Assembly: GCF_022763525.1 (NCBI RefSeq)
Contig: NZ_JALEGG010000087.1
Location: 1,691-65,690 of the forward strand
Length of the DNA: 64,000 nucleotides
Direction of reading: 5' to 3'
DNA from: Acidovorax sp.
Lineage (GTDB): Bacteria > Pseudomonadota > Gammaproteobacteria > Burkholderiales > Burkholderiaceae_C
The notes beneath the pieces are model-generated. The model did not search any database and had not been told where the DNA came from. It saw only the letters and a list, made by a program, of their open reading frames with translations. The position numbers were made by a program, and so were the translations under genes. Shown here piece by piece: positions 4,332 to 59,990 of this stretch. How positions within the stretch are numbered: the first letter of the stretch is position 1; each line of letters starts with the position of its first letter.

Positions 4332-4390
4332 GTTGCTTTTTCCAGCCAATAGCTGGGCGATTGACTTCGAAAAGGCGCTTGGCGGCCTAT
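4332..4390 (+). repeat. Short AT-rich interspersed repeat (ad hoc name SAR), intergenic copy
   Basis: gTTGCTttttccagccAATAGCTGggcgattgacttcgaaaagGCGCTtgGCGGCCtat. Same ordered blocks as the copies at 59932 and 40556. Lies between the protease and tatD starts. Confidence 0.6.
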
Positions 4391-4462
4391 CCCGACCCGC
4401 ACTACCACGGACTCGCGAGGGCTATGCACGCCATCCCCATGCTGCTGGGGCATCATGGCGCC

Positions 4463-5290
4463 ATGCACGCCTGGATCGATACCCATTGCCACCTGGACGC
4501 CCCGGAGTTCGACCCCGACCGCGACCGGGTGCGCAGCGACGCCCGGGATCGGGGCGTGATCCACTGCGTGATCCCTGCGGTGGCCCGCAGCAACTGGGCT
4601 ACCGTGCGGGACTTGGCGCACCGCCACGGCGACAGCTACGCGCTGGGCATCCATCCGTTGTGCACCCCCGACGCCCACGACGACGACCTGGATTGGCTGG
4701 CCCGCGAACTCGACGCTCACCGCAACGATCCGCGCCTGGTCGCCGTTGGCGAGATCGGTCTGGACTATTTCGTGCCGGGCCTGGACCCTGCGCGGCAGGA
4801 GCGTTTTTACCGCGGGCAGCTGCAGTTGGCCCGCCGTTTCGACCTCCCCGTGTTGCTGCACGTGCGGCGTTCTGCCGACAAGCTGCTCAAGGCCCTGCGC
4901 GAGTTGCCCGTGCAAGGCGGCATTGCGCACGCCTTCAATGGCAGCCTGCAGCAGGCGCAGGCGTTCATCGGCCTGGGATTCAAGCTCGGCTTTGGCGGCG
5001 CCATGACCTATGACCGCGCGCTGCAGCTGCGCCGCTTGGCCGCCGAGCTGCCGCAGGAGGCGCTGGTGGTCGAAACCGATGCGCCCGATATCCCGCCCCA
5101 CTGGCTGTACACCACGGCCGCCCAACGGGCCGCGGGCCAGCCGCAGGGCCGCAACACGCCGGGGGAGCTCGCGCGCATCGCACCCCTCCTGGCGCAATTG
5201 CGCGGCCAGCCCGAGGACGCGCTGGCCAGCAGCACCTGTGCCAACGCGCTGGCGGCGCTGCCCCGGTTGCGGTCCCTCGTTCGCGCTTGA
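4463..5290 (+). CDS. TatD-family metal-dependent hydrolase/DNase
   Basis: MHAWIDTHCHLD... N-terminus plus GEIGLDY and HAFNGS motifs. The start is uncertain; in-frame ATGs also occur at 4424 and 4439. Confidence 0.8.
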   Translation: MHAWIDTHCHLDAPEFDPDRDRVRSDARDRGVIHCVIPAVARSNWATVRDLAHRHGDSYALGIHPLCTPDAHDDDLDWLARELDAHRNDPRLVAVGEIGLDYFVPGLDPARQERFYRGQLQLARRFDLPVLLHVRRSADKLLKALRELPVQGGIAHAFNGSLQQAQAFIGLGFKLGFGGAMTYDRALQLRRLAAELPQEALVVETDAPDIPPHWLYTTAAQRAAGQPQGRNTPGELARIAPLLAQLRGQPEDALASSTCANALAALPRLRSLVRA

Positions 5291-5292
5291 AT

Positions 5293-5356
5293 GGCCGACA
5301 TTTTGATGAGCCACCGCTGAGTGGCAAACGGTTGGCCGCTATCGTTTTTTTGCAAA
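5293..5356 (-). repeat. SAR repeat, degenerate intergenic copy
   Basis: The reverse complement reads tTTGCaaaaaaacGATAGCGgccaaccgtttgccactcAGCGGtGGCtcatcaaaatg. Block order is retained but several blocks are eroded. Confidence 0.4.
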
Positions 5357-5396
5357 TGGTGAGGGAGTCCGGAAAGTTTGGGGTCAGAATGGGTGG

Positions 5397-6047
5397 ATGC
5401 CCGAAGTCCTCACCATGCCCCCCTCGCCGCACGCCGGTGATCAGCCGCCGGCATCGCCCGCGCGCCTGGCAGGGTTGCCGCCGGTGGTGTCGGCGGACTC
5501 GGTGGTATTGATCCTCGGGAGCTTTCCGGGGGCGGCTTCCTTGAGGCTTCGCCAGTACTATGCGCACCCACAAAACCATTTCTGGAAAATTTTGCAGGCA
5601 CTGTGGCCGCAGCATCCCTTGCCACCCGCTGGAACCGACGGGTACGCCGCGCGGTGCGACTGGCTGCTGGCACGGCGGCTGGGCCTGTGGGATGTGTACG
5701 AGAGCTGCGAGCGGGAAGGCAGCCTGGACACCAGCATCCGCCATCCGCAAGTGAACGATTTTGCGCGCCTGCGTCAGGCGTGCCCCCGGCTCGCCGCCGT
5801 TGCGCACAATGGCGGCGAAAGCTTCAAGCATGCGCGCGCGGTGCTCGCCAGTTTTGGCCAGCCCCGCCCGACGGTGGGCGGCGGCGTGCCCGCCCGCCCC
5901 GGGCGGAAGCAGGGTGCTGGTGCGGATCTCGCCAGCCCCGTCGCGTCGCACCGCCTTCCCTCCACCAGCCCCGCCAATGCGTCCTGGAGCTTTGAGCGTA
6001 AATTGGCCGCCTGGACGGCACTCATGTCCACCCATGGCCTGCTTTGA
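5397..6047 (+). CDS. UDG-superfamily DNA glycosylase (hypoxanthine/deoxyinosine DNA glycosylase-like)
   Basis: 216-aa ORF with ...LILGSFPGAASLRLRQYYAHPQNHFWKIL... and ...LPSTSPANA..., as in family-6 UDG/HDG proteins. An alternative start is at 5415. Confidence 0.6.
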   Translation: MPEVLTMPPSPHAGDQPPASPARLAGLPPVVSADSVVLILGSFPGAASLRLRQYYAHPQNHFWKILQALWPQHPLPPAGTDGYAARCDWLLARRLGLWDVYESCEREGSLDTSIRHPQVNDFARLRQACPRLAAVAHNGGESFKHARAVLASFGQPRPTVGGGVPARPGRKQGAGADLASPVASHRLPSTSPANASWSFERKLAAWTALMSTHGLL

Positions 6048-6056
6048 CTGCCTTGA

Positions 6057-6821
6057 ATGACCCGCAAGAAAGATAAACCGAAAGAACTGCCCGAAGTCAG
6101 CGTGTCCGACGACGGAGATGTGCGCCACCTGCACTTGGGCACCCCCTGGATCCAGGGCTCGATGCGCATTGCCGAGCCCTTTGCGCTGGAGCTGGAGTAC
6201 GTTCAGCGCATGATGGCCTGGCTGTTGTTTGCCGACCTGGCTCAGGTTTCCAAAGGCCACGCGATGCAGCTGGGCCTGGGCGCAGGCGCCATCACCAAGT
6301 TCTGCCACAAGAAGCTGCGCATCTGCACCACGGCCATTGAGCTCAACCCGCAGGTGCTGGCCGTGTGCCGGCACTGGTTCAAGCTGCCGCCGGATGGTCC
6401 CAAGCTGCGCGTGGTGCTGGCGGATGCCGCGCAAGAGATCAGAAACCCCATGTGGCTGGGCACGGTGGATGCGCTGGCGGTGGACCTGTATGACCATGAA
6501 GCCGCCGCGCCCGTGCTGGACAGCCCCGAGTTCTACGCCGACTGCCGCGCGTTGCTCACCGAAACCGGCAGCATGACCGTGAACCTTTTCGGGCGTGCGT
6601 CGAGCTTCGACCGCAGCCTGCAAAGCATGGCAGCGGCGTTTGGCGAAGATGCGCTGTGGGCCTTCAAGCCCACGCGCGAGGGCAACACCGTGGTGCTGGC
6701 GCAAAGGACTCCCACCCGCCCCAAGCGCGCCGAACTGGCCGAACGCGCCCAGGCGATCCAGGAGCGCTGGGAGCTGCCCACCGCCAAGGGGTTGCGGGCG
6801 TTCAAGCCCGTGGTGGCCTAG
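6057..6821 (+). CDS. Spermidine synthase-like class I methyltransferase
   Basis: 254-aa ORF with SAM-binding-like LGLGAGA and ...AIELNPQVLAVCRHWFKLP...DLYD. The TAG stop is part of the CTAG that flanks the downstream MITE-like element. Confidence 0.6.
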   Translation: MTRKKDKPKELPEVSVSDDGDVRHLHLGTPWIQGSMRIAEPFALELEYVQRMMAWLLFADLAQVSKGHAMQLGLGAGAITKFCHKKLRICTTAIELNPQVLAVCRHWFKLPPDGPKLRVVLADAAQEIRNPMWLGTVDALAVDLYDHEAAAPVLDSPEFYADCRALLTETGSMTVNLFGRASSFDRSLQSMAAAFGEDALWAFKPTREGNTVVLAQRTPTRPKRAELAERAQAIQERWELPTAKGLRAFKPVVA

Positions 6822-7085
6822 GGCCTGTTCACATTATTTTTGCCAGATGCGTTGCGTTGCCAAGGGCCATGCGCGAGGCGCCAAACCAATCTGGGGTGGG
6901 GCCCCAGCGCGGGGTTGCCACGCCGCGGATGGGCCGTGGGCATCGCCACCCGAAGGGAAGGCTTCCCGCGCCACGCCACTCGTCGTTGCGTTCCTAGCCA
7001 AGGCCCCCGGCCTTGGCGTCGTCACGCGCCTAGATTGGCGTGGCGGGAGAGGCCTTCGCAATGGCAAAAATAGTGTGAACAGGCC
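6822..7085. mobile_element. MITE-like element X (264 bp) with 24-bp terminal inverted repeats
   Basis: The left end is ggcctgttcacattatttttgcca. The right end tggcaaaaatagtgtgaacaggcc is its reverse complement with one mismatch. The interior is an imperfect long palindrome. CTAG flanks both sides (6818-6821 and 7086-7089). No transposase gene. Confidence 0.7.
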
Positions 7086-7089
7086 CTAG

Positions 7090-7247
7090 TGTCCTGTCCC
7101 GCAAATAAATGCCAATAAAACCGCGTCTTTCACGCCAGGGCTGCGTTGCAAATCCTCGCGATAGCACTGACTCTCGCTGCGGTTTGCGCCTTGCCCTGGC
7201 GCGAAATCCATCGGTTTTATTTCGTCATCTATTTACGGGACAGGACA
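7090..7247. mobile_element. MITE-like element Y (158 bp) with ~38-bp imperfect terminal inverted repeats
   Basis: The left end is tgtcctgtcccgcaaataaatgccaataaaaccg. The right end is cggttttatttcgtcatctatttacgggacaggaca. CTAG flanks both sides (7086-7089 and 7248-7251). The interior is also palindromic (cgccagggc...gccctggcg). Confidence 0.7.
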
Positions 7248-7312
7248 CTAGCATTCAACTCCGGTGATCAGCGCCCGCGCTGCCCACCACGGTCTCATAT
7301 GAAAGGCAGTTG

Positions 7313-9106
7313 ATGAAAACTTCCCTGGCTTCCCCACAAGGCAGTACGGCGCGGCCTTTTGCCGGCCCGCTGGATTGGCGGCGCGTGGTGCAGTGGCTCA
7401 GCGATGACGAGGTCATCTCCCAAGAGGAGGCGCAGCGCACCATCGCCCGCTGTTCGCAGGCCGAAAGCTCGCAGCACGCCCTGGTGCGTCTGGCCAACGT
7501 GGCCATGACGCGCGCCAGCGACGGCAAGCCGCTCGATATCGAAGCGCTGTCCGAGTACCTTGCCAAGCGCGCGGGCCTGCCTTACCTGCGCATCGATCCG
7601 CTCAAGGTGGACGTGGGGCGCGTGGCCGACACCATGAGCGCGACCTATGCGGAGCGCCACAAGGTGCTTCCCGTGCAGGTCACGCCCAAGGAAGTGGTGG
7701 TGGCCACCGCCGAGCCATTCATCGAGGACTGGGTGGCCGAGGTGGAGCGGCAGTCCCGCCGCACGGTGCGCCGGGTGGTCGCCAACCCGGCGGACATTCA
7801 TCGGTTCACCGCCGAATTCTTCGCCTTGGCCAAATCGGTGCGTGCCGCCCAGAAGGCGGGCGGCAACTCCGGCGGCAGCAGCTTCGAGCAGCTGGTCGAG
7901 CTGGGCAAGAGCAACAAGCAGCTTGATGCCAACGACCAGGGCGTGGTCAAGGTGGTCGACTGGCTCTGGCAATACGCCTTTGACCAGCGCGCGAGCGACA
8001 TCCACCTGGAGCCGCGGCGTGACCAGGGCGTCATCCGTTTTCGCATCGACGGCGTGCTGCACCCGGTCTACCAGATGCCCATGGGCGTGCACAACGCCAT
8101 GGTCTCGCGCATCAAGCTGCTGGGCCGCATCGACGTGGTGGAAAAGCGCCGCCCGCAGGACGGCCGGATCAAGACACGAAACCAGCGCGGCGATGAGGTG
8201 GAAATGCGTCTGTCCACGCTGCCGACGGCCTTTGGCGAAAAGATGGTCATGCGGATCTTCGATCCGGACAACGCCGTTAAGGACCTGGATGCGCTGGGCT
8301 TTTCGCAGCACGACGCCGAGCGCTGGGAGGCGCTGGTCAAGCGGCCGCACGGCATCGTGCTGGTGACGGGCCCCACGGGCTCCGGCAAGACCACCACCTT
8401 GTACTCCACCTTGAAGCGCGTGGCCACCGAAGAGGTTAACGTGAGCACCGTGGAGGACCCGATCGAAATGATCGAGCCCAGCTTCAACCAGACGCAGGTG
8501 CAGCCCCAGTTGGATTTCAACTTTGCCGAAGGCCTGCGCGCACTGATGCGCCAGGACCCGGACATCATCATGGTGGGGGAAATCCGCGACTTGGAAACCG
8601 CCGAGATGGCCATCCAGGCAGCGCTCACAGGGCACCTGGTGTTCTCCACGCTGCACACCAACGATGCGCCCTCGGCCATCACCCGCATGATGGAACTGGG
8701 CGTGCCCCCCTATCTGCTCAACGCCACCTTGCTCGGCGTGCTGGCGCAGCGCCTGGTGCGCACGCTGTGCAAGCAGTGCAAGCAAAAAGACGACGGGGGC
8801 GACCGCGAGACGCTGATGGCGGCTGTCAAGCCGTGGAAGCTCAGCGGGGGCTACCACCCCTACAAGCCCGTGGGCTGCGTCGATTGCCGCATGAGCGGGT
8901 TCCGGGGCCGCATGGGCCTGTACGAACTGCTCACGGTCACCGAGCCCCTCAAGGAAAAGATCAACCAGTCTCCCTCTATCGACATGCTGCGCCGCCAAGC
9001 GGTGCAGGACGGCATGCGCCCGCTGCGGCTGGCGGGGGCGCTGCGTGTGGCGGAGGGTGTGACCACGCTGGACGAAGTCATTACCGCAACGCCACCGCTC
9101 GAATAG
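7313..9106 (+). CDS. GspE/PilB-family secretion ATPase (type II secretion / type IV pilus assembly ATPase family), orphan
   Basis: T2SSE_N-like N-terminal domain, Walker A GPTGSGKTT, Walker B DPDIIMVGEIRD and His box TGHLVFSTLHTND. C-terminal tetracysteine CKQC...CVDC. ATG at 7313 follows a TTG at 7310; GAAAGG lies upstream. Confidence 0.85.
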   Translation: MKTSLASPQGSTARPFAGPLDWRRVVQWLSDDEVISQEEAQRTIARCSQAESSQHALVRLANVAMTRASDGKPLDIEALSEYLAKRAGLPYLRIDPLKVDVGRVADTMSATYAERHKVLPVQVTPKEVVVATAEPFIEDWVAEVERQSRRTVRRVVANPADIHRFTAEFFALAKSVRAAQKAGGNSGGSSFEQLVELGKSNKQLDANDQGVVKVVDWLWQYAFDQRASDIHLEPRRDQGVIRFRIDGVLHPVYQMPMGVHNAMVSRIKLLGRIDVVEKRRPQDGRIKTRNQRGDEVEMRLSTLPTAFGEKMVMRIFDPDNAVKDLDALGFSQHDAERWEALVKRPHGIVLVTGPTGSGKTTTLYSTLKRVATEEVNVSTVEDPIEMIEPSFNQTQVQPQLDFNFAEGLRALMRQDPDIIMVGEIRDLETAEMAIQAALTGHLVFSTLHTNDAPSAITRMMELGVPPYLLNATLLGVLAQRLVRTLCKQCKQKDDGGDRETLMAAVKPWKLSGGYHPYKPVGCVDCRMSGFRGRMGLYELLTVTEPLKEKINQSPSIDMLRRQAVQDGMRPLRLAGALRVAEGVTTLDEVITATPPLE

Positions 9107-9119: not shown

Positions 9120-9247
9120 CTGAGAGCGGCTAACAAAACTCCTTTGCTCCTCAGGCGTCGTTGCAGCGGCTTGTCGTACACGTTGTACTGCCTGCAACGC
9201 AGCGCCTAGCCAGAACCGCTTCGCTGAGTTCTGCTGGCCGCTCTCAG
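9120..9247. repeat. GC-rich long palindromic element (ad hoc LPE), copy 1
   Basis: The arms ctgagagcggctaacaaaactc and gagttctgctggccgctctcag are inverted repeats. The core is ggcgtcgttgcagcggcttgtcgtaca/ttgtactgcctgcaacgcagcgcc. It starts 13 nt after the gspE-like stop. Confidence 0.7.
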
Positions 9248-9423
9248 GCAGATCGCGCGCTCTGCCGAAACCGCTGCCTGCCCGGCCTGGGCAAGCTTTA
9301 CGACCCCATGGCCGCTGATGGCTGGGACGGGAAGGGTTACGGAATGTAGGTGGAATCCACATCCACGCACGCCCTGGATGCCCCCACAATCGCGCAGTCG
9401 AAAATCCGCCAAGGAGACAATTC

Positions 9424-14548: not shown

Positions 14549-14710
14549 TGAAACTCCCCCTGAGTCGCCTTCGGCGCCTTCCCCCTCTCTCGCTGCGCGG
14601 GAGGGGGACGCCACCGGTGGCCTGGCGAAGCCAGATCCATGGTGGCACTGGCTTGGGCTACGCCACTTGCCAGCGACACGGGTCGTACGCACGTCATTGA
14701 TGAGTGGAAA

Positions 14711-14774
14711 GCTATATTAAAAGTGCCTCCAGCCCAATCACCACAAGCGCAAGCAGCTAGAAAAAATGTAGCAA
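14711..14774 (-). repeat. SAR repeat copy overlapping the 5' end of the EamA gene
   Basis: The reverse complement reads TTGCTAcattttttcTAGCTGcttGCGCTTgtggtgattgggctgGAGGCActtttaatatagc. It is read in frame as ...AILKVPPAQSPQAQAARKNVA.... Confidence 0.65.
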
Positions 14775-15652
14775 CCGGGCTCGTCCTGGCGCTGCTGGGC
14801 TCCATCGCCTTCAGCGGCAAGGCCATCATCGTCAAGCTGGCGTACCGCTATGGCGTCGATGCGGTCACGCTCATCATGTACCGCATGCTGTTCGCGCTGC
14901 CCATCTTCGCCGTGATGGCATGGTGGGCCAGCCGGGGCCAGCCACCTTTGACTCGCAAGGACTGGCTGGGCGTGCTGGGCCTGGGGCTCACAGGCTACTA
15001 CCTGGCGAGTTTCCTGGACTTCGCCGGGCTGGCCTACATCAGCGCAAGCCTGGAGCGCCTGATCCTGTACCTCAACCCGACGCTGGTGGTCGTGCTGGGC
15101 TGGGTGCTTTACCGGCGCAGCATCACGTGGGGGCAGGCGCTGGGCATGCTCATCAGCTACTGCGGCGTCGTGCTGGTGTTCGGGCATGAGGCCAATCTGC
15201 AGGGCGCCAACGCGGCCTGGGGCACCTTGCTGGTGTTCCTGAGCGCGGTGAGCTATGCCATTTACCTGGTCTACAGCGGCGAAATGGTGCGGCGCCTCGG
15301 CTCGCTGCGGCTCGTGGGCCTGGCCACCTCCGTGGCGTGCCTGCTGTGCCTGTTGCAGTTCGTGTTGCTCCGCCCCCTGAGCGCCGCGGTGGTGGCCCCT
15401 GAGGTGGTCTGGCTGTCCATCCTGAACGCGACGCTGTGCACGGCGGCCCCGGTGCTCATGGTGATGATGGCCATTGAACGCGTGGGTGCGGGCACGACGG
15501 CGCAGACGGGCATGGTGGGGCCCTTGTCGACCATCCTCATGGGCGTGTGGATCCTGGGCGAGCCGTTCACGGTGTGGGTGGCGGCGGGCACGGCGCTGGT
15601 GTTGGCGGGCATTTTCGTGTTCACGCAGATGGCGCGCCGTCAGGCACCGTAG
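14723..15652 (+). CDS. EamA/DMT-family transporter
   Basis: Ten-TM DMT protein (...GLVLALLGSIAFSGKAIIVKLAY...). The start is uncertain. GTG 14723 gives a normal short N-terminus; the track start ATG 14639 adds 28 aa. Confidence 0.7.
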   Translation: MPPAQSPQAQAARKNVATGLVLALLGSIAFSGKAIIVKLAYRYGVDAVTLIMYRMLFALPIFAVMAWWASRGQPPLTRKDWLGVLGLGLTGYYLASFLDFAGLAYISASLERLILYLNPTLVVVLGWVLYRRSITWGQALGMLISYCGVVLVFGHEANLQGANAAWGTLLVFLSAVSYAIYLVYSGEMVRRLGSLRLVGLATSVACLLCLLQFVLLRPLSAAVVAPEVVWLSILNATLCTAAPVLMVMMAIERVGAGTTAQTGMVGPLSTILMGVWILGEPFTVWVAAGTALVLAGIFVFTQMARRQAP

Positions 15653-15673: not shown

Positions 15674-15862
15674 TGCGGATCGCGCGCGGACTGGACCCAC
15701 AGCAGCGACTACGCTGCGAACCACGCCGTGGCCTTCGATGTGGACAGCCGTTACGAACCCGTGCAGGGCCTGCACCGCACCATTCAGCGTTGGGTCTGCA
15801 AGGCACCCCGTGCCTCGGTGATGCTCGCCAAGGGCAAAGAGACCTTCGTCTGGGAGTTTTAG
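15674..15862 (+). pseudogene. Possible gene remnant or small ORF (coding-like frame without an ATG)
   Basis: An open frame reads ...DWTHSSDYAANHAVAFDVDSRYEPVQGLHRTIQRWVCKAPRASVMLAKGKETFVWEF* with GC-rich third positions. The only starts are GTG (15728) or ATG (15821). It ends where LPE copy 2 begins. Confidence 0.25.
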
Positions 15863-15975
15863 GAGCGGCTAACAAAGCTCTTCTGGCGTCGTTGCAGCGT
15901 CTTGCCGTACGACTTCTTGTACTGCCTGCGACGCGGCGCCTCGCCAGAACCACTTCGCTGAGTTTGGTTAGCGCC
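15863..15975. repeat. GC-rich long palindromic element (LPE), copy 2
   Basis: gagcggctaacaaagctc...ggcgtcgttgcagcgtcttgccgtac...ttgtactgcctgcgacgcggcgcc...gagtttggttagcgcc. Lies between the convergent EamA and M48 genes. Confidence 0.7.
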
Positions 15976-16000
15976 AAGTCCGCCGGTGAGGCGGCGTTGC

Positions 16001-17673: not shown

Positions 17674-18504
17674 ATGGATTTGGGTATCGCAGGCAAATGG
17701 GCGCTGGTGTGCGGCGCCAGCAAGGGGCTGGGCTATGGCTGTGCTCAAGCCCTGGTGCGCGAGGGCGTCAATGTGGTCATCAATGCCCGCAATGCGCAGG
17801 CGCTCGAACAGGCTGCTAGCAATTTGGTAGCTGATGCCGCGCTTGCTGCAAGCGCGGGGGGGCAAAAAATTGTCCAACCCCAGGTCGTGGCGGTGGCCGC
17901 CGACATCACCACGGCCGAGGGGCGCGCGGCCGTGTTCTCGGTGCCGGGTGGGCCGGGGCGCGACTTCGACATCGTGGTGACGAACGCGGGTGGCCCGCCC
18001 ACCGGAGATTTTCGCGACTGGGACCGCGATGCCTGGATCAAGGCGGTGGATGCCAACATGCTCACTCCCATCGAGCTGATCCGCGCCACGGTGGACGGCA
18101 TGGCCGCACGGGGCTTCGGGCGCATCGTCAACATCACCTCCAGCGCCGTGAAGGCCCCCATCGACATCCTGGGCCTTTCCAACGGCGCGCGCAGCGGGCT
18201 GACCGGCTTTGTGGCAGGGGTTGCTCGCAGCAAGATTGCCGCGCAGGGCGTAACCATCAACAACTTGCTGCCGGGAAAGTTTGACACCGATCGGCTCGCG
18301 GCCACGGTGGTCGCCGCCGCCGGCAAGTCAGGCAAGTCGGTGGACGATGTCCGCCAGGCCCAGCAGGCCCAGATTCCGGCAGGCCGCTATGGCACCGCGC
18401 AGGAGTTCGGAGCGATCTGCGCCTTCCTGTGCAGCCAGCATGCCGCGTACATGACCGGACAGAACATCCTGGCCGATGGGGGCGCCTACCCAGGCACGTT
18501 CTGA
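17674..18504 (+). CDS. SDR-family oxidoreductase
   Basis: Start moved to ATG 17674 (MDLGIAGKWALVCGASKGLGYG...). Contains an NAGG motif and an SDR fold sequence. A SAR repeat copy sits in the loop after the second beta-strand. Confidence 0.85.
   Translation: MDLGIAGKWALVCGASKGLGYGCAQALVREGVNVVINARNAQALEQAASNLVADAALAASAGGQKIVQPQVVAVAADITTAEGRAAVFSVPGGPGRDFDIVVTNAGGPPTGDFRDWDRDAWIKAVDANMLTPIELIRATVDGMAARGFGRIVNITSSAVKAPIDILGLSNGARSGLTGFVAGVARSKIAAQGVTINNLLPGKFDTDRLAATVVAAAGKSGKSVDDVRQAQQAQIPAGRYGTAQEFGAICAFLCSQHAAYMTGQNILADGGAYPGTF
17813..17872 (+). repeat. SAR repeat copy inside the SDR gene (sense orientation)
   Basis: cTGCTAgcaatttgGTAGCTGatgccGCGCTTGctgCAAGCGCgGGGGGCaaaaaattg. Translated in frame as AASNLVADAALAASAGGQKIV. 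Confidence 0.65.
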
Positions 18505-33741: not shown

Positions 33742-33744
33742 CGG

Positions 33745-33804: not shown

Positions 33805-33908
33805 ATGAAAACGGAGTATATTGTGATCTACGGCTGTCCCTGCGCAGGGCTGCCCGCGAGACTCCGCGTTCCGAATCCTTGTGTACTTTGTGTTCCAGGA
33901 GGCGTGTT

Positions 33909-40364: not shown

Positions 40365-40555
40365 ACGGCCTCCTGCACACGGTTGGCAAGGGGCTCTGCA
40401 GGCGGCGCGCGCTGGCAGCCGCAGAAAGCCCTGTCGGCAACATACGTCGGCCGGGGCGCGGGCTGTGTAGGAAGCGGCCAAACCCCGGGGTAGGTGGCAT
40501 CAACGCAAGGTGCGACAGGCCGGGGACCTTTGCGGTCGGAAAAGCGGCCGGAGTG

Positions 40556-40613
40556 ATTGCTATTGAAATGCTAGCTGTTGACGCATTTCGTATAAGCGCT
40601 AAAGGCCGTTTTC
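40556..40613 (+). repeat. SAR repeat, well-conserved intergenic copy
   Basis: aTTGCTATtgaaatgcTAGCTGttgaCGCAtttcgtatAAGCGCTaAAGGCCgttttc. It abuts the stop codon of the DUF1653 gene. Confidence 0.75.
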
Positions 40614-40863
40614 AAGAATTTTCGTCATCGCTGCATTTCTCGAACCGCGGCCGCATCGTGCCATCGATGAGCACCTGCTCTTCAAACATGGCCGCAGGCC
40701 GCACCCACAGCCCCCGCTCGCCGTAGAGCGCGCGGTAGAGCGTCATGGGCTCCAGGGTCTCGCTGTGGCGCACGGTGTCCAGAACCTCGTAGAGCATGCC
40801 CTTGTAGTGGCGGTATCTGCCCGGCGGTGTGCGGATGAGGGCGGGAAGATCGTCGTCGTTCAT
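40612..40863 (-). CDS. DUF1653 domain-containing protein
   Basis: 83 aa with ...GRYRHYKGMLYEVLDTVRHSETLEPMTLYRALYGERGLWVRPAAMFEE.... Confidence 0.8.
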   Translation of the reverse strand: MNDDDLPALIRTPPGRYRHYKGMLYEVLDTVRHSETLEPMTLYRALYGERGLWVRPAAMFEEQVLIDGTMRPRFEKCSDDENS

Positions 40864-40933
40864 GTTCGTTAGGATGGCGGGTTTACAGGTTTACAAGAAG
40901 CTGTTCAGCAGAGCAACTATCGGGGGAGATTCC

Positions 40934-42787
40934 GTGGACCAGGCAGATTTTGTGCACATGGTGCGCATGAGCGAGCATGCCAGCGCCGACAACAGCCGGG
41001 CGTATCGCCGCAGCGTGGCTGCGTTTGCGGCGCTGGGCTATGCCTGGGTGCTGGGCTGCCTGGGCCTGGCCGTGGCCATGCTGGCGTGGGTGCTGCCGCA
41101 GGTGCTGCAGGGGCGGTTTCGGATCTCGATGGTGTGGGCGCTGATCGCCGCGGCCAGCCTGCTGTGGATCAGTCTTCGCGCGTTGTGGGTGCGGTTTGAC
41201 GAGCCCGAGGGCGTGGAGATCAAAGCAGCGGATGCACCCGAGCTCTTCGAGGCGCTGGAACGCATCCGCCGCAAGATCAAGGGGCCACCCATCCACAAGG
41301 TCACGCTCAACGACGAGTTCAACGCCAGTATTCAGCAGCTACCCCGGTATGGCCTGCTGGGCGGCGCCGTCAACCACTTGAGCGTTGGCCTGCCCCTGCT
41401 GATGGCACTGGACCGACCGCGCTTTCTGGCCGTGCTGGCGCATGAGTATGGCCACCTGCGCGGCGACCACGGGCGCTTCGCGGCCTGGATCTACCGCACG
41501 CGCCTGTCGTGGATGCGCCTCAACCACAGCCTCGCCGACGACGAAGGTCCGGTGGGGGCGGCCACACAGGCTTTCATGCGCTGGTACTTTCCACGGTTTT
41601 CCGCCAAGACGTTTGCGCTGGCGCGCCAGGATGAGTACGAAGCCGACCGCATTGCCGGCAAGCTGCTGGGGCGCGAGGTGACCGCGGCCGCACTGGCCGA
41701 GATCGAGATCCGCGGCGCCGCGCTGGACGCCGACTTCTGGCGGGACCATTGGTGCGCTGCCGCTGGCAACCCCTTGCCGGTCGGGCCCTATCGCGGCATG
41801 CGCCGATTCCTCGCCAAGCCCCCGGATGCCGCGTTTGCCAACGATGCGCTGCGGCTGGCGCTCAAGCGGCTGAGCAGCGTGGACGACACCCACCCCAGTT
41901 TGCGGGACCGCATCGAGGCGCTCGACGCCACCCCCACCTTGCCGGAGTGGTCGCGCGGCAGCGCGCTGGGCATCCTGGGCGAGGAAGCCAAGCGCTGGGT
42001 AAAGCACTTTGACAACCAATGGTGCCGCGACAACGCCACCGAATGGAAACAGCACCACGCATGGCTGGTGCGGGTGCGTGCCCGGGCCGATGCCCTGGCC
42101 GCCATGGCAGCGCAGGCCAGTGCCGCCGAACTGGTGGAACTGGCGCGCTTGCGGCGCCATCTGGATCCGCATGCCGACGTGCGCGGGCTGTATGAGCTGG
42201 CGCTGGAGCGCAGCCCCGAAAACCCGGCCGCCCTGCGTGGGCTGGTGCCGTGCCTGGCCGAGGACGACCGCGAAGGCCGCCTTGCATTGCTGCACCGCCT
42301 GTGGGACGCGGGCAGCAGCGACCGCTACTGGGCAGCACGCACTGCGCTGGCCGAACTGGATACGCCCCGCATGGGCATGGACCACGACGCTGCAGCCTTC
42401 AAGCAGTGGCGCAAGCGCCTGGAACGGGCGCAGGAGTCCGAGGAGCGGGCGTGGGAGGAACTGTCCAGCACGTCCTTCTTCAGCCAGATCACGCGGCACG
42501 ACCTGAGTGCCTTCGAGCTGGCGGAACTTCAGTCCGAGTTGGCCCGCTGTGCACCTGTGGCCCGCTGCTGGCTGGTGCGCAAGAACCTGCGCGAGCATCC
42601 CCAGCGCCGGGCCTACCTCATCTTTGTGGAGCTGCCGGGCATGGACGATGAAAGCCGCTACCACCTGTGCCGCGCGCTGGAGCGCAACCTCAGCCTGCCG
42701 GGCCCGGCGTTGGCGCTGTGGGCGGGCGAGTCGCCCACACTGAAGGAAATCCAGCGCTACGCGTTTGACCCGGTGCATTCACGCTGA
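40934..42787 (+). CDS. M48-family metallopeptidase with membrane N-terminus and long helical C-terminal domain
   Basis: HEYGH zinc motif. GTG 40934 is preferred (GGGGGAG 5 nt upstream). The track start 40829 would overlap the divergent DUF1653 gene. Confidence 0.75.
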   Translation: MDQADFVHMVRMSEHASADNSRAYRRSVAAFAALGYAWVLGCLGLAVAMLAWVLPQVLQGRFRISMVWALIAAASLLWISLRALWVRFDEPEGVEIKAADAPELFEALERIRRKIKGPPIHKVTLNDEFNASIQQLPRYGLLGGAVNHLSVGLPLLMALDRPRFLAVLAHEYGHLRGDHGRFAAWIYRTRLSWMRLNHSLADDEGPVGAATQAFMRWYFPRFSAKTFALARQDEYEADRIAGKLLGREVTAAALAEIEIRGAALDADFWRDHWCAAAGNPLPVGPYRGMRRFLAKPPDAAFANDALRLALKRLSSVDDTHPSLRDRIEALDATPTLPEWSRGSALGILGEEAKRWVKHFDNQWCRDNATEWKQHHAWLVRVRARADALAAMAAQASAAELVELARLRRHLDPHADVRGLYELALERSPENPAALRGLVPCLAEDDREGRLALLHRLWDAGSSDRYWAARTALAELDTPRMGMDHDAAAFKQWRKRLERAQESEERAWEELSSTSFFSQITRHDLSAFELAELQSELARCAPVARCWLVRKNLREHPQRRAYLIFVELPGMDDESRYHLCRALERNLSLPGPALALWAGESPTLKEIQRYAFDPVHSR

Positions 42788-52671: not shown

Positions 52672-52733
52672 CGGGCCGGCTGGCTGGCCACGACAAGCCG
52701 GCCGGGCCCGCATCCCCAGATCAGGAGTTTCTG

Positions 52734-53366
52734 TTGAAAAAGATCGCCACTGCAATTTTGATAGCTGCTGCCGCAAGCGTAGCAAGCGCTGACGGCCTTA
52801 AAAGCCTGGAGTCCTTCATGAAGGGCACACAGACCGGCAAGGCGGATTTCACGCAGACGGTGACCTCGCCGCCGAAGGATGGGCAGGCCGCGCGCACCAA
52901 GACATCCAGCGGCAGCTTCGAGTTCCAGCGACCCAACCGCTTCAAGTTCGCCTACAGGAAGCCGTTCGAGCAGATCATCGTGGCCGACGGGCAAACGCTG
53001 TGGCTGTACGACGTGGATCTGAACCAGGTCACGCAGCGCTCGCAGTCGCAAGCCCTGGGCACCACACCCGCTGCATTGCTCGCGTCGGCCCCCGACCTGT
53101 CGGCGCTCAAGGCCGAGTTCGCGCTGGAAAACGCCCCCGACCAGGACGGTCTGCAGTGGGTGCAGGCCACGCCCAAAACCAAGGATGGTCAGCTCAAGAG
53201 CGTGCGCGTGGGCTTTGCGGGTGAGCAGCTCGCGGCCCTGGACATCCTGGACAGCTTTGGCCAGCGCTCGCTGATTCGCTTTACCGGCATGCAGGCCAAT
53301 GCGACGCTGCCTGCAGGCAGCTTCCAGTTCAAGCCGCCAGCCGGGGCGGATGTGGTGAAGCAGTAG
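52734..53366 (+). CDS. lolA: Outer-membrane lipoprotein carrier protein LolA
   Basis: TTG start at 52734 with AGGAG 6 nt upstream gives the signal peptide (M)KKIATAILIAAAASVASA|DG. The mature part is LolA-like (...FTQTVTS...LWLYDVDLNQVTQR...). An alternative ATG at 52668 overlaps the ftsK stop. Confidence 0.85.
   Translation: MKKIATAILIAAAASVASADGLKSLESFMKGTQTGKADFTQTVTSPPKDGQAARTKTSSGSFEFQRPNRFKFAYRKPFEQIIVADGQTLWLYDVDLNQVTQRSQSQALGTTPAALLASAPDLSALKAEFALENAPDQDGLQWVQATPKTKDGQLKSVRVGFAGEQLAALDILDSFGQRSLIRFTGMQANATLPAGSFQFKPPAGADVVKQ
52750..52805 (+). repeat. SAR repeat copy encoding the LolA signal peptide (sense orientation)
   Basis: cTGCAattttGATAGCTGctgccGCaagcgtagcAAGCGCTgaCGGCCttaaaagc. 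Translated as AILIAAAASVASADGLKS. Confidence 0.65.
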
Positions 53367-53369
53367 CGT

Positions 53370-53427
53370 TTTGCTTCAAAAAACATAACTGTCAGCGCTT
53401 GCTGGCTGGGCGATTGAGGCATTTTTC
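53370..53427 (+). repeat. SAR repeat, intergenic copy between lolA and rarA
   Basis: tTTGCTTcaaaaaacATAACTGtcaGCGCTTgctggctgggcgatTGAGGCatttttc. Confidence 0.6.
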
Positions 53428-53463
53428 GCTTGAAAGCCTGACGTAGACAGGATCCACTCCAAC

Positions 53464-54813
53464 ATGGCAACACGCAGTGCCTCCACCCCCGCGGCGATGC
53501 ATGCCCCCGCCCACCAGCCCCTGGCGGAGCGCCTGCGGCCCCGCACGCTCGGCGAGGTGATCGGCCAGCAGCATGTGCTGGGCCCGGGCATGCCGCTGCG
53601 GCTGGCCTTTGAATCGGGCCGCCCGCACAGCTGCATCCTGTGGGGCCCGCCGGGCGTGGGCAAGACGACCATCGCGCGGCTGATGGCCGATGCGTTCGAC
53701 GCACAGTTCATCAGCATCAGCGCCGTGCTGGGCGGGGTCAAGGACATCCGCGAGGCGGTCGAACGTGCCGAGGCGGCGCGCGACGGGCTGATGCAGCAGC
53801 GCACGATCGTCTTCGTGGATGAAGTGCACCGCTTCAACAAGAGCCAGCAAGATGCCTTCTTGCCGCATGTGGAGAGCGGGCTGTTTACCTTCATTGGGGC
53901 AACCACCGAAAACCCGTCGTTCGAGGTGAACTCGGCGCTGCTGTCACGCGCTGCCGTGTACGTGCTGCAGCCGCTGTCCGAACAGGATCTGAAGCAAATA
54001 GTGGCTCTGGCGCAGGCAGAGAAAGCGCTGCCAGCTATCGAAGATGTAGCAATCGATCGCTTGGTGGCCTATGCCGATGGCGATGCCCGCAGATTGCTCA
54101 ACACACTCGAAACCCTGGCCATGGCGGCCACGCAGGAGAAGCTGACCGAGATCACCGACACCTGGCTCCTCAAGGTGCTGGGCGAGCGCATGCGCCGCTA
54201 CGACAAGGGCGGCGAGCAGTTCTACGACACCATCAGCGCGCTGCACAAGTCGGTGCGCGGCTCCGACCCCGATGCTGCGCTGTATTGGCTGGTGCGCATG
54301 CTCGACGGAGGTGCCGACCCGCGCTACATGGCCCGCCGTTTGGTGCGCATGGCCAGCGAAGACATTGGCCTGGCAGACCCGCGCGCGCTGCGCCTGGCGC
54401 TGGACGCCAGCGAGGTGTACGAACGACTGGGCAGTCCTGAAGGGGAACTGGCCTTGGCTGAATGCGTGGTGTATCTGGCCGTGGCACCCAAGTCCAACGC
54501 CGTCTACAAAGCCTACAACGCGGCCCGTGCCTGGGTGAAGCAGGACGGCACCCGCCCGGTGCCGATGCACCTTCGCAATGCACCAACGCAGCTCATGAAA
54601 CAGCTCGACTACGGCAAAGGCTACCGTTACGCGCACGACGAAGAGGGAGGCTTTGCGGCGGGCGAAAACTACCTGCCGGAGGGGATGCCGGAGCCCGGTT
54701 TCTACGTGCCAGTGGAGCGCGGACTCGAAATCAAGATCGCACACAAATTGCGTGAGTTGCGTGCTCGCAATGCTTCCGCGGATTCCGCGGGCATTGCCAG
54801 CGAAGAGTCTTGA
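53464..54813 (+). CDS. rarA: Replication-associated recombination protein A (MgsA/RarA AAA+ ATPase)
   Basis: Walker A GPPGVGKTT, DEVHRFNK, and the C-terminal MgsA domain ...YDKGGEQFYDTISALHKSVRGSD.... Confidence 0.93.
   Translation: MATRSASTPAAMHAPAHQPLAERLRPRTLGEVIGQQHVLGPGMPLRLAFESGRPHSCILWGPPGVGKTTIARLMADAFDAQFISISAVLGGVKDIREAVERAEAARDGLMQQRTIVFVDEVHRFNKSQQDAFLPHVESGLFTFIGATTENPSFEVNSALLSRAAVYVLQPLSEQDLKQIVALAQAEKALPAIEDVAIDRLVAYADGDARRLLNTLETLAMAATQEKLTEITDTWLLKVLGERMRRYDKGGEQFYDTISALHKSVRGSDPDAALYWLVRMLDGGADPRYMARRLVRMASEDIGLADPRALRLALDASEVYERLGSPEGELALAECVVYLAVAPKSNAVYKAYNAARAWVKQDGTRPVPMHLRNAPTQLMKQLDYGKGYRYAHDEEGGFAAGENYLPEGMPEPGFYVPVERGLEIKIAHKLRELRARNASADSAGIASEES
53994..54054 (-). 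repeat. SAR repeat copy inside rarA (antisense orientation)
   Basis: The reverse complement reads gaTTGCTAcatcttcGATAGCTGgcaGCGCTTtctctgcctGCGCcAGAGCCactatttgc. Translated in rarA as QIVALAQAEKALPAIEDVAI. Confidence 0.65.
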
Positions 54814-54907: not shown

Positions 54908-55026
54908 GGCTAGAGCGGGAACTAAAACTCTTCCGGCGTCGTTGCTACGTCTTGTTGTACGCCCAGTCCTGCCTGCGATGCAGCGCCTGGCCCGAACCGT
55001 TTCGCTGAGTTTTGTCAGCGGCTGTT
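54908..55026. repeat. GC-rich long palindromic element (LPE), copy 3
   Basis: ggctagagcgggaactaaaactc...ggcgtcgttgctacgtcttgttgtac...cctgcctgcgatgcagcgcc...gagttttgtcagcggctg. Lies about 95 nt downstream of the rarA stop. Confidence 0.65.
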
Positions 55027-55280
55027 AGCGTTTAGGCCCGGCGCATTATGTCGGCCTGCTCGACCCCGCCAGCGCCATTCACAGCTTCTGAATCCACGAG
55101 TGCGCTGCCCGTTATGCTGATTTGGCATAAAGGTGGTAATAAGTTAGCACATCAATTTTCCTGCTCGCATCATTCCAACTTATGGATTGCGTTCTGCGCT
55201 GATGTGGCGCAAACCCGAGGGAAAACCCCGCCCGGCGCCGCAAGGGCTGCGAGGGACTACTGGCTACAATCCCGTCCACA

Positions 55281-58222: not shown

Positions 58223-58234
58223 AGGACAGAACAA

Positions 58235-58963
58235 ATGGCCGAAAAATCCAACAAAGTTTTATTGCAGGTCAAGGGCCTGAAGGTGGCCTACGGCGGCATC
58301 CAGGCCGTCAAGGGCGTGGACTTCGAAGTGCGCGAGGGCGAACTGGTCTCGCTGATTGGCTCCAACGGTGCTGGCAAGACCACCACCATGAAGGCCATCA
58401 CCGGCACGCTGGGCATGAACGATGGCGACATCGAGTACCTGGGCCAGAGCATCAAGGGCAAGGGTGCCTGGGACCTGGTCAAGGAAGGCCTCGTGATGGT
58501 GCCGGAAGGCCGCGGCGTGTTCGCACGCATGACCATCACCGAAAACCTGCAGATGGGTGCCTACATCCGCAAGGACAAGGCGGGCATCCTCGCCGACATC
58601 GAGAAGATGTTCACCATCTTCCCCCGCCTGCGCGAACGCAAGGACCAGCTGGCCGGCACCATGTCCGGCGGCGAGCAGCAGATGCTGGCCATGGGCCGCG
58701 CGCTGATGAGCCAGCCCAAGGTGCTGCTGCTGGACGAGCCTTCCATGGGCCTGTCGCCCATCATGGTCGACAAGATCTTCGAGGTGGTGCGCGACGTGTA
58801 CGCCCTGGGCGTGACCATCGTGCTGGTGGAGCAGAACGCGAGCCGCGCGCTCGCGATTGCCGACCGCGGCTATGTGATGGAATCGGGCTTGATCACCATG
58901 ACGGGCCCCGGCCAGGACCTGCTGAACGATCCCAAGGTGCGTGCGGCGTACCTGGGCGAGTAA
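58235..58963 (+). CDS. livF: Branched-chain amino acid ABC transporter ATP-binding protein
   Basis: Walker A GSNGAGKTT and the signature MSGGEQQML. Confidence 0.9.
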   Translation: MAEKSNKVLLQVKGLKVAYGGIQAVKGVDFEVREGELVSLIGSNGAGKTTTMKAITGTLGMNDGDIEYLGQSIKGKGAWDLVKEGLVMVPEGRGVFARMTITENLQMGAYIRKDKAGILADIEKMFTIFPRLRERKDQLAGTMSGGEQQMLAMGRALMSQPKVLLLDEPSMGLSPIMVDKIFEVVRDVYALGVTIVLVEQNASRALAIADRGYVMESGLITMTGPGQDLLNDPKVRAAYLGE

Positions 58964-58994
58964 GTCCAGCGGCGGCTGGCCTGACAAGCAGACG

Positions 58995-59030
58995 AAAAGG
59001 GGCGCAGGTCACGGACCGCGCCCCTTTTTT
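58995..59030. terminator. Bidirectional rho-independent terminator
   Basis: aaaaggggcgc-loop-gcgcccctttttt, lying between livF and the convergent OMP gene. Confidence 0.8.
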
Positions 59031-59077
59031 CGTGGTGACTGCCGCTATGGTTGGCAGGGGGCCGTGCCGCGCTGCTG

Positions 59078-59710
59078 TCAGAACCGGTATTGCAATCCCA
59101 CCGTGGTCATCTTCACCGCATTGTCCCCGTCGGAGAACTTGAACTTGTGGCTTTCCCACTCGACCACGGCGGCCCATTGCGGTGTGAACGCCCAGCGCGC
59201 GCCCAAGCCGTACGACAGTCCGAAGCCGTCTTCCTTGCCTGTTCGCACGCCCAGGCCGCTGGCGCCCGAGGTGCGGGTGCGGCCGTAGGTCGTGCCGACC
59301 TTGCCGAACAGGTCGAATTGCTCGCTCAGAGGCGCGCGGCCCACGAGGCTCAGGTTGAAGCCGTGCGCCTCGGTATCACCGCCCAGGCGGTGGGCCTTGC
59401 CTGCGTTGAGGTAGCCGAGTTCCACGCCCACGTTGGGGTGGAAGAACCCGCCGGTGTACACCTTGAAGGCGCTGTCCGAATCGTCAAAGGGCGCGCCGCC
59501 CGCGCCGCTACGGATGTCGTACTTCGAGTTGCCGGCGCTGATGCCCAGGTAGCCATTCTGCGTATATGGCAGCACGGACATGCGGTCACTGCGGGTGGAC
59601 GCCGAAGAAGAGGGCGCTGGCGCGGAAGACGTGGAAACCTGGGCTTGCGCACCCATGGAGATGCAGGCGACGGCCAAAGCCACGGGCACAAGGCGGTGAT
59701 GGAATGTCAT
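59078..59710 (-). CDS. Outer-membrane beta-barrel protein (OmpA-like TM / OmpW-like porin family)
   Basis: Start moved to ATG 59710 (MTFHHRLVPVALAVACISMGAQA signal peptide). Alternating beta-strand pattern and a C-terminal ...VGLQYRF. Confidence 0.75.
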   Translation of the reverse strand: MTFHHRLVPVALAVACISMGAQAQVSTSSAPAPSSSASTRSDRMSVLPYTQNGYLGISAGNSKYDIRSGAGGAPFDDSDSAFKVYTGGFFHPNVGVELGYLNAGKAHRLGGDTEAHGFNLSLVGRAPLSEQFDLFGKVGTTYGRTRTSGASGLGVRTGKEDGFGLSYGLGARWAFTPQWAAVVEWESHKFKFSDGDNAVKMTTVGLQYRF

Positions 59711-59931
59711 GAAGCGGTCCTCGGGTCGGTTGGGGCAGAAGGGATGCGGCCCCATGCGCGCCTTGTAGGTCCCGGTAACGCGTGGGGTGCATTGCCAATG
59801 TAGGAACTGACCGAGGTCCTCTCCGTGGGAGTGCAGGGAACCCGCTTGTAGGAACCGGCTGATGGTGCCGCCTGTGCAGGCCCGGCACGTCCTGGGGCCG
59901 CAGAGGGGGCGAACCTAACGAGTCGTATCGG

Positions 59932-59990
59932 TTTGCTATAAAAATAATAGCTGATTGCGCTTGTGGGTAAAGCGCTAGAGCCTCTTTTTA
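59932..59990 (+). repeat. SAR repeat, best-conserved intergenic copy
   Basis: tTTGCTATaaaaataATAGCTGattGCGCTTgtgggtaAAGCGCTaGAGCCtcttttta. 22 of 59 positions are G+C by hand count. Confidence 0.75.

Follow-up and report, generated by a model that had tools for sequence, protein, structure and literature searches.

The repeat family and its setting

The subject of this analysis is a short AT-rich motif that recurs along a 64,000-nucleotide stretch of an Acidovorax sp. genome (RefSeq assembly GCF_022763525.1, contig NZ_JALEGG010000087.1, positions 1,691–65,690), hereafter the window, in which an earlier note had listed 13 copies of an interspersed repeat built from ordered sequence blocks. When nhmmer profiles were constructed from the listed copies in leave-one-out fashion, with E-values calculated for the 64-kb window, 11 of the 13 were recovered when left out of the profile (E 1e-2 to 7e-13), namely 14711(-), 17813(+), 24984(-), 28427(-), 33745(+), 36741(+), 40556(+), 52750(+), 53370(+), 53994(-) and 59932(+), where the sign gives the orientation. 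Copies 4332–4390 and 5293–5356 were undetected by the profiles even at E ≤ 10 and aligned poorly to the others, and for these reasons they are excluded from the family. A 90-copy nhmmer profile found the same 11 copies together with a partial one at 1–43(+) (E 1.5e-4), and returned zero matches under E 0.01 in 20 Markov-shuffled windows. The proposed block structure was further borne out by an 18-base pattern of fixed spacing which, at up to three mismatches, matched 12 times in the window, 11 of these matches being copies, versus 0.57 ± 0.79 matches (maximum 3) in dinucleotide-shuffled sequence. The family is real, as are its density of about one copy per 5 kb and its character as a set of local AT-rich islands, with a G+C content of 0.37–0.57 for the copies against approximately 0.66 for the window. 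Pairwise identity between copies is only 55–70%. The RarA protein of the window shares 94–95% identity with its A. facilis and A. radicis counterparts, and a short-chain dehydrogenase/reductase (SDR) protein identical to that of the window is present in public assemblies.

Six of the 12 window copies fall in coding sequence, that of rarA, ileS, an acyl-CoA dehydrogenase gene, a Nudix hydrolase gene, an SDR gene and the signal peptide of lolA. The rarA copy (53971–54071, listed as 53994, minus orientation) is the best documented of these, and lies antisense in the gene (53464–54813, +) over the peptide DLKQIVALAQAEKALPAIEDVAIDRL. Also antisense are the copy at 36739–36814 (36741, +) in the acyl-CoA dehydrogenase gene (36091–37206, -), corresponding to the peptide AVPAQSGYAVAAIKNIVP, and that at 24982–25055 (24984, -; leave-one-out E 3.6e-12) in the N-terminal DUF4743 region of the Nudix hydrolase gene (approximately 24870–25682, +), for whose product Pfam assigns residues 19–124 to DUF4743 and residues 135–250 to NUDIX. 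Three copies are read in the sense direction. The ileS copy (28416–28483, listed as 28427, minus orientation) occupies part of the last 180 nt of a gene on the minus strand (28299–31358), upstream of lspA; the SDR copy (17810–17879, listed as 17813, +; leave-one-out E 4e-6) encodes AASNLVADAALAASAGGQKIV within an oxidoreductase gene at 17674–18504, has an A-rich tail and is the weakest member of the family; and the lolA copy (52730–52827, listed as 52750, +) specifies the signal peptide of LolA (KKIATAILIAAAASVASA/DGLKSLESF) and has a tail rich in A instead of T.

The intergenic copies are 1–43, 33745, 40556, 53370 and 59932, three of these five being located in divergent spacers. At the window edge, copy 1–43 comprises only the 3' half of the motif (model positions 38–80), was found in every leave-one-out run as well, and is directly 3' of the stop of a minus-strand gene ending at 40. 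Copy 33745 (33743–33812, +; leave-one-out E 2e-5) is located in the spacer from which ribF (-) and an HNH endonuclease gene (+) diverge, its head being approximately 5 nt from the ribF ATG (start codon at 33741, minus strand), and copy 40556 (40546–40612, +; leave-one-out E 1.8e-9), which has stop codons in all six frames, lies between an open reading frame (ORF) at 39810–40481 (-) and an M48 peptidase gene at 40829–42787 (+). Copy 53370 (53352–53442, +; leave-one-out E 0.0099, 90-copy profile E 5e-11) begins 4 nt past the lolA stop and ends 37 nt short of the rarA ATG. The best intergenic copy, 59932 (59930–60008, +; leave-one-out E 6.8e-13), matches the 18-base pattern exactly at a G+C content of 0.37, and separates a divergent pair consisting of an OmpA-like gene (-) and a DMT_6/DUF486 gene at 60041–60403 (+). 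Copy 14711 (14715–14790, -; leave-one-out E 4.7e-9, 90-copy profile E 1.1e-13) is found between ggt, which ends at 14548, and an EamA transporter gene, antisense to the 5' region of the EamA frame; the EamA start codon is uncertain, and the Pfam EamA domain begins at residue 46 of the ORF at 14639–15652.

Anatomy of the motif

The core of the motif spans approximately 58 bp, or about 75 bp including the tail, and reads (T)TGCTA(Y)-N7-(R)ATAGCTG-N3-GCGC-N11-GCGC-N2-GAGGCC, after which come a run rich in T, or in some copies in A, and GCTTSAAAT. From TGCTA to GAGGCC no internal indel was found across 29 independent sites, with the exception of one weak match. In a 23-site, 59-column alignment, columns C5, T6, A18, G19, C20, G28, C29 and G41 are invariant, and T13, T17, G26, C27, C44 and G49 nearly so. 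These invariant bases form two dyads, GCT-N11-AGC and GCGC-N11-GCGC (both of the form GC-N13-GC), whose centres are separated by 23 bp, or some two turns of the helix. The 29 sites share, with little or no variation, the symmetric half-sites at constant distance that are typical of operators. The conserved bases are dispersed over some 40–50 bp, and the best-enriched 6–8-mers (TTGATA, TTGCTA) exceed Markov expectation only about 3-fold.

Several copies had been credited with a GCGCTT...AAGCGC stem-loop, and the palindrome is indeed present in many of them, but its pairing is no better than that of column shuffles. Under a two-hairpin model 69.9% of paired cells were complementary versus 69.6% after shuffling (228 of 500 column shuffles reach the observed value), with a covariation score of 0.086 versus 0.083, and a long-hairpin model was likewise equal to its shuffled control. 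The RNAalifold consensus, at -4 kcal/mol, holds only two 4-bp helices, and the folds of single copies are heterogeneous. This shuffle-level pairing and weak consensus fold speak against a conserved hairpin or RNA structure. Rfam models at gathering score gave no match in the whole 64 kb, and at E ≤ 10 none on a copy between 52.6 and 60.1 kb.

Other familiar identities were likewise dismissed. Intrinsic termination is not a general property, as a terminator scan flagged no window copy and the T-run is usually 6–9 nt away from the stem, being displaced or replaced by A in many copies. Nor are sigma-70 promoters, consensus scans of 52–61 kb having yielded a single sigma-70-like match, TTTACC-16-TATTAT on the antisense strand of copy 59932, directed toward the OmpA-like gene. 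Consensus sequences for sigma-54, sigma-28, IHF, Fis, Lrp and FNR, compared by eye, do not appear to fit the spacing. The ends of the motif, ATTGCTA... and ...TTTGCTTCAAAT, are unrelated as inverted repeats, and no terminal inverted repeats were found.

Coding copies and codon choice

Regions of ±10 kb were taken around rarA from 80 Comamonadaceae genomes, and around the ileS 3' end from 80 metagenome contigs. Through the motif, the RarA alignment is gapless in 81 of 81 sequences, as is that of IleRS in 81 sequences except for one codon missing in two (L114 and L120). The motif segment of the acyl-CoA dehydrogenase is gap-free versus PDB 6wy8, and Pfam DUF4743 spans the Nudix copy with no more than four extra residues over 102 matched profile positions. 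For rarA, ileS and the acyl-CoA dehydrogenase gene these alignments rule out in-frame insertion of the kind known from Rickettsia palindromic elements (RPEs), one of the classes with which the family had been compared; the analogy misfits in general, with the possible exception of the SDR copy. At that copy the protein has 12 residues more than PDB 5vps/5idx, and the copy is located in the most variable, indel-prone loop of the Acidovorax orthologues, in a homologue search that returned only close Acidovorax sequences and no motif-less outgroup.

The coding copies differ from their motif-less counterparts chiefly in codon usage. In motif-bearing lineages rarA reads TTG AAG CAA ATT/ATA GTG GCT ... 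CCA GCT ATC GAA nnn GTA GCA ATn, with these rare AT-rich codons conserved in 31 sequences, and ileS reads GCT ATT GAA TTG GTA GCT GGT AGC GCn ... GCC AGT TCT, where Variovorax, Hydrogenophaga, Limnohabitans and others encode near-identical peptides via codons of the type GCC ATC GAG CTG GCC GCC GGC. The G+C content at third codon positions (GC3) is 0.49 in the motif codons of rarA versus 0.83 in the rest of the gene (31 motif-bearing sequences), and 0.47 versus 0.87 in ileS (27 sequences); in the same codons of motif-less relatives it is 0.85 for rarA (0.84 outside) and 0.78 for ileS. Low GC3 is partly built into this comparison, since the motif-bearing group was defined as those sequences matching the AT-rich profile. 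The informative observation is that one genus after another has identical rare codons in identical places, between flanks of approximately 0.85 GC3, and that sister genera do not have them. Synonymous positions within the motif are under constraint.

A profile built solely from presumed intergenic copies nevertheless detects the copies in rarA (1.4e-9), the acyl-CoA dehydrogenase gene (1.2e-7), ileS (1.1e-6) and lolA (4.7e-6), so that the resemblance at the DNA level is not a by-product of protein similarity, an explanation equally ruled out by the coexistence of sense, antisense and non-coding copies. In the acyl-CoA dehydrogenase, the peptide GYAVAAIKNIV at 36741 aligns to GWRLSGTKAVV of PDB 6wy8, the glycine of the homologue's G-x-K being an alanine here; judging from this alignment, the motif may have forced a non-synonymous Gly-to-Ala change.

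Gene calls in the fetched loci are heuristic, and context counts outside the window are therefore indicative only; sorting of sites into genic and intergenic by GC3 alone proved unreliable, and codon log-likelihood performed better but was still weak on contigs of lower G+C content. With this proviso, the independent sites clearly internal to coding sequence number six antisense and one sense (SDR); the sense copies of ileS and lolA occupy gene ends, and those of Nudix and EamA, close to the 5' end of the gene, are antisense. On the sense strand, TGA and TAG in TTGATAGCTG leave one open frame, and on the antisense strand two. The antisense excess is thus largely due to stop codons closing the sense frames, and for this reason it is not taken as evidence of an RNA function. 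Intergenic sites are found in short spacers of every configuration, whether right behind a stop codon, across the whole of a convergent spacer or in a divergent promoter region.

Positional conservation, lineage distribution and turnover

In 2.8 Mb of fetched loci, 201 profile matches were resolved by flank clustering into 29 independent sites. The largest clusters correspond to sites in the window, those in rarA (n=31), lolA (n=29) and ileS (n=27), and that upstream of ribF (n=21), which has an orthologous position in 24 metagenome contigs; they are followed by the Nudix site (n=13, metagenome loci), the site upstream of DMT_6 (n=10, equivalent to copy 59932) and the acyl-CoA dehydrogenase site (n=10, in L084, L085 and others). 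With synteny checked, orthologous sites extend across Acidovorax, Giesbergeria, Simplicispira, Rhodoferax and Curvibacter. Density amounts to 1.4–2.3 per 10 kb in these five genera and Xylophilus, versus 0.08 per 10 kb over 357 kb of Variovorax sequence and zero over 247 kb of Hydrogenophaga and 123 kb of Limnohabitans, values which are not independent whole-genome samples because the loci share two neighbourhoods. Extrapolation of this density would give a genome-wide copy number of approximately 800–1000. Two Acidovorax entries depart from their genus: L004, a metagenome-assembled genome of Acidovorax sp., has G+C-rich codons at the rarA site and no motif copy in 21 kb, and L049 (uncultured Acidovorax) likewise has G+C-rich codons there and one match in 17 kb. 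These two entries suggest that certain lineages have lost the system entirely, or else that the taxonomic labels are wrong.

At most sites occupancy is stable across genera, and one clear lineage-specific gain was seen. The lolA–rarA spacer copy is present only in the window and L001–L003 according to the spacer alignment, and in L007 according to a profile match. In Variovorax, Rhodoferax and Diaphorobacter of the same gene order the lolA stop is followed almost directly by a conserved GCAGACAGG, from which it follows that approximately 85 bp were gained between the two genes. Target-site duplication had been proposed as a check on mobility, and none flanking this gain is visible in the spacer alignment. 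The description of the family as interspersed repeats of repetitive extragenic palindromic (REP) or miniature inverted-repeat transposable element (MITE) type is upheld only in part: at least one intergenic copy, this one, resembles added DNA, but six copies are inside coding sequence.

At the ribF-upstream site the ribF ATG lies 0–15 nt past the motif head in 25 of 25 aligned sequences (24 metagenome loci and the window), without a Shine–Dalgarno sequence. Just 3' of this copy, at 33812–33830, the block GGAGTATATTGTG is nearly invariant in the same 25 of 25 sequences; it lies outside the repeat consensus, and could be a Shine–Dalgarno sequence with a GTG start, or a -10-like element, for the HNH endonuclease gene. 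A DUF1513 gene (31459–32667, -) separates ileS from ribF in the window. In L081, L084 and L085, the nearest metagenome relatives, this gene is missing and ribF comes immediately after ileS. The gene, which is free of motif copies, appears to be a lineage-specific insertion.

The motif extends to virus-like DNA. A scan of IMG/VR with the 18-base pattern returned 37 stretches, of which the profile confirms 34, all on contigs of 58–68% G+C; from the number of specified bases, only a handful of chance matches would be expected. Three copies within 1.2 kb were seen in each of two virus- or plasmid-like contigs of approximately 66–72% G+C (L161, 2700–3970, and L197, 2060–3290), all antisense in one giant minus-strand ORF with repeated modules. 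In L161 the peptides concerned are linkers of the form APALxxQxxAAIKxxA, and manual inspection there showed two of the copies to share the antisense frame A-x-x-A-A-I-K/E with rarA and the acyl-CoA dehydrogenase gene. On the prophage-like IMG/VR contig L189 (1369–3100) a CI/XRE-like repressor gene is closely preceded by two copies, and regulatory use of the motif by mobile elements is possible.

A proposed DNA-level signal and its putative reader

The reading preferred here, to which a probability of roughly 0.4 is attached, is that the element is a DNA-level signal, kept by selection as the binding site of a putative lineage-specific DNA-binding protein. The fixed geometry, the short dyads without covariation, the indifference to host-gene orientation and the genic sites made by substitution all point to recognition of DNA, and occurrence in both orientations relative to the containing genes is as expected for a double-stranded site. 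The motif is accordingly best described as a candidate DNA-level signal, the pattern of conserved bases suggesting both a protein reader and its oligomeric architecture. The protein would be a sequence-specific one, confined to a single Comamonadaceae sub-clade (Acidovorax, Giesbergeria, Simplicispira, Rhodoferax, Curvibacter), and its footprint may be that of a dimer of dimers in the manner of LysR-type tetramers. Operators of LysR-type regulators comprise a recognition binding site and an activation binding site with T-N11-A boxes, one operator per regulated promoter. The likeness is geometric only, consisting of two dyad N11 boxes (T6-N11-A18 and C29-N11-G41) with centres about two turns apart and a footprint of approximately 55 bp; in contrast to the motif, such operators are not present some 1000 times per genome, nor inside genes.

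At 1.5–2 sites per 10 kb the putative protein would have the whole chromosome as its field of action, in the manner of a nucleoid-associated protein or global regulator, and purifying selection would hold its sites at fixed chromosomal positions. Within genes, point substitutions would create sites from coding segments with a pre-existing half-match to the motif, such as alanine-rich helices and signal peptides, the substitutions consisting of rare AT-rich synonymous codons and a few conservative replacements. Intergenic sites would occupy short spacers at gene starts and ends, where gain as extra DNA is also possible.

Several considerations weigh against this proposal. The cognate protein is itself only putative, and to our knowledge a specific 58-bp motif occurring about once per 5 kb is unusual among known bacterial DNA-binding proteins. 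Invariant palindromic words could also mean that what is recognised is a hairpin, whether in RNA or in single-stranded DNA, and a compensatory GCCC...GGGC variant occurs at two sites (L054_15791 and L147_13490). Intergenic copies are often located directly after stops or fill convergent spacers, a placement typical of REP elements and terminators. Finally, the sampled relatives represent two genomic neighbourhoods and virus-like contigs, so that the genome-wide figures are extrapolated from only 29 independent chromosomal sites.

With a comparable degree of reserve, the motif may be regarded as an undescribed chromosome-wide DNA code, of approximately 1000 copies of a 58–75-bp site, read by a dedicated protein or by uptake or recombination machinery, in which selection would override codon usage, and occasionally amino-acid choice, in essential genes such as ileS and rarA, and would hold sites over genus-level divergence. 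No published description of the motif, whether as a Comamonadaceae uptake sequence, a REP or a MITE, was found in a literature of which coverage is incomplete. If the proposal is correct, it would constitute a class of its own among signals for genome organisation or self-recognition, separate from REP, uptake sequences, Chi and HIP1; it could be categorically new if a dedicated reader exists, and would otherwise belong with the genome-wide interspersed sequence signals. It would also imply that long DNA signals can overlay protein-coding sequence, and that AT-rich rare-codon patches in conserved genes may be explained by constraint at the DNA level rather than by translation. The 58-bp motif would then be a handle on an abundant DNA-binding or uptake factor in the environmentally important Comamonadaceae (Acidovorax, Rhodoferax, Curvibacter), and the sharp boundary of presence and absence between sister genera makes a comparative-genomics search for the partner gene realistic. 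A note of caution for annotation is in order as well, since repeat finders, and readers at a first pass, would label the copies REP or MITE even though half of them are ordinary coding sequence.

Alternative explanations and known systems

Among the alternatives, the one that survives best, though it must be considered unlikely, is that of a self-recognition signal resembling the uptake signal sequences (USS) of Haemophilus and the DNA uptake sequences (DUS) of Neisseria. These spread by molecular drive, motif-ward mutations being preferentially re-imported and recombined, and the evolutionary signature of the present motif is the same and would equally be produced by such a process. Like USS and DUS it is genome-wide and found in both orientations, its coding copies are made by substitution in tolerant segments, it is enriched in intergenic regions and at gene ends, its positions are stable among relatives, and its presence or absence follows lineage, in the manner of their lineage-specific 'dialects'. 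Its occurrence on virus-like contigs of similar G+C content would fit as well, as would the type IV pilus genes of the window (probable pilB, 7310–9106). USS and DUS, however, possess a near-invariant core of 9–12 nt that is over-represented 100–1000 fold, whereas the motif is some 58–75 bp long, with conserved bases spread over approximately 50 bp at fixed spacing, no short word enriched beyond the 3-fold noted above, and a density of about 1 per 5 kb that is lower than theirs. It is the missing short and hugely over-represented core that sets the low standing of this explanation. The comamonad Verminephrobacter is naturally transformable via type IV pili, with hints of uptake sequence specificity (PMC4212676), which speaks in its favour, but no literature link between Comamonadaceae and uptake sequences was found.

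Somewhat less probable again is a REP-like element acting as RNA or single-stranded DNA, in which the palindromes fold as 3'-end stabilisers, terminators or attenuators, and antisense copies might stop antisense transcription. REP elements and bacterial interspersed mosaic elements (BIMEs) resemble the motif in being short, palindrome-containing, present in hundreds of copies and often located after stops and between convergent genes, and for them, too, protein binding at the DNA level has been proposed (gyrase, IHF). Copies 53370, L081_13263, L091_20020, L054_15791 and L087_20442 are within a few nt of stops or fill convergent spacers, a long, perfectly paired hairpin with a T-run behind it is seen in some copies (L009_17581), the T-run is missing from the coding copies read in sense (lolA, SDR, ileS), and the six-to-one antisense preponderance and the two GCCC/GGGC compensatory changes would both be accommodated. 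The structural results described above argue otherwise, namely covariation no greater than in column shuffles, a consensus fold of merely -4 kcal/mol, heterogeneous single folds, a T-run distant from the stem or replaced by A, and the lack of terminator and Rfam matches. In addition, the stop codons in TTGATAGCTG largely account for the antisense excess, and three window copies lie in divergent promoter spacers. REPs are moreover extragenic, G+C-rich in G+C-rich genomes, headed by GTAG or GTGG, variable between strains and linked to REP-associated tyrosine transposases (RAYTs). The present motif is AT-rich and half coding (six of 12 window copies), its palindrome is not conserved as structure, its positions are conserved across genera, and its head is TTGCTA...ATAGCTG, GGTAGC being found in only 2 window copies.

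A promoter module would be a still more doubtful identity. Its AT-rich half would form, on the antisense strand, a weak sigma-70-type promoter reading outward through the motif head, with GCGCTTG as -35 and TATCAA/TATTAT as -10, 16 nt apart, driving either the gene beyond the head or antisense RNA within genes. This agrees with the sigma-70-like site of copy 59932, with gene starts just past the head at many sites, most consistently that of ribF with its missing Shine–Dalgarno sequence, and with the divergent spacers occupied by three of the five intergenic window copies. The consensus -10, TATCAA, nevertheless lacks the critical final T, the -35 lies within the variable loop, no promoter was found by the scan in the remaining copies, many copies face gene ends, and a promoter would need neither a fixed geometry of approximately 58 bp nor the GAGGCC and tail blocks.

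Least probable of all is a non-autonomous mobile element (MITE, REP or Correia-like, and RPE-like when genic) spreading by insertion, which the clean gain of approximately 85 bp between the lolA stop and GCAGACAGG in the closest Acidovorax, the 12 extra SDR residues and the copies on virus-like contigs would support, but which is refuted for coding copies, these adding no residues in rarA, ileS and the acyl-CoA dehydrogenase gene and being homologous to motif-less sequence of sister genera, and survives only for some intergenic copies, given positions stable across genera, the lack of both terminal inverted repeats and target-site duplications, a 64-kb window in which neither a transposase nor a RAYT gene was noticed, and identities of only 55–70% that give no sign of recent bursts. 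The analogy with REP/BIME, enterobacterial repetitive intergenic consensus (ERIC) and Correia elements drawn in the earlier note accordingly fails for about half of the copies, which are insertion-free native coding sequence at positions conserved across genera and shaped by synonymous codon choice. RPEs do resemble the motif in occurring both within protein-coding genes and between genes and in being conserved between species. They are, however, in-frame insertions adding 30–50 residues, whereas rarA, ileS and the acyl-CoA dehydrogenase gene gain none here and only the SDR protein has 12 extra.

Two further systems show parallels to the motif. The HIP1 palindrome (GCGATCGC) of cyanobacteria is reported to be a lineage-specific motif under selection in coding and non-coding DNA, of unknown function (PMC5861425). 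In these respects it is similar to the present motif, but HIP1 is an exact 8-mer present more than once per gene and the motif a long composite found about once per 5 kb. The betaproteobacterial repeat element (BRE) of Hot et al. 2011 is a comparable case in that it was reported in Bordetella and Comamonadaceae, occasionally within coding sequences; it is, however, approximately 90 bp long, G+C-rich (69%), often tandem and present in no more than 29 copies per genome (PMC3110155), and its G+C-richness and tandem arrangement rule it out as the identity of the motif.

Other repeats in the window

A second, unrelated repeat family is present at 9128–9250, 15862–15985 and 54912–55035. Its copies are G+C-rich, approximately 125 nt in length and 62–77% identical, are bounded by terminal inverted repeats of about 17 nt (GAGCGGCTAACAAAACTC ... 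GAGTTTTGTTAGCGGCT), and are all intergenic, following the probable pilB, the EamA gene and rarA, respectively. This family looks far more MITE- or REP-like than the motif family, and a relationship to the BRE is possible. Two adjacent MITE-like units precede the probable pilB, at 6818–7251, the first (6818–7089) with a 28-nt inverted repeat that is 96% complementary and the second (7086–7251) with a 35-nt inverted repeat at 83%, both of which begin and end in CTAG.

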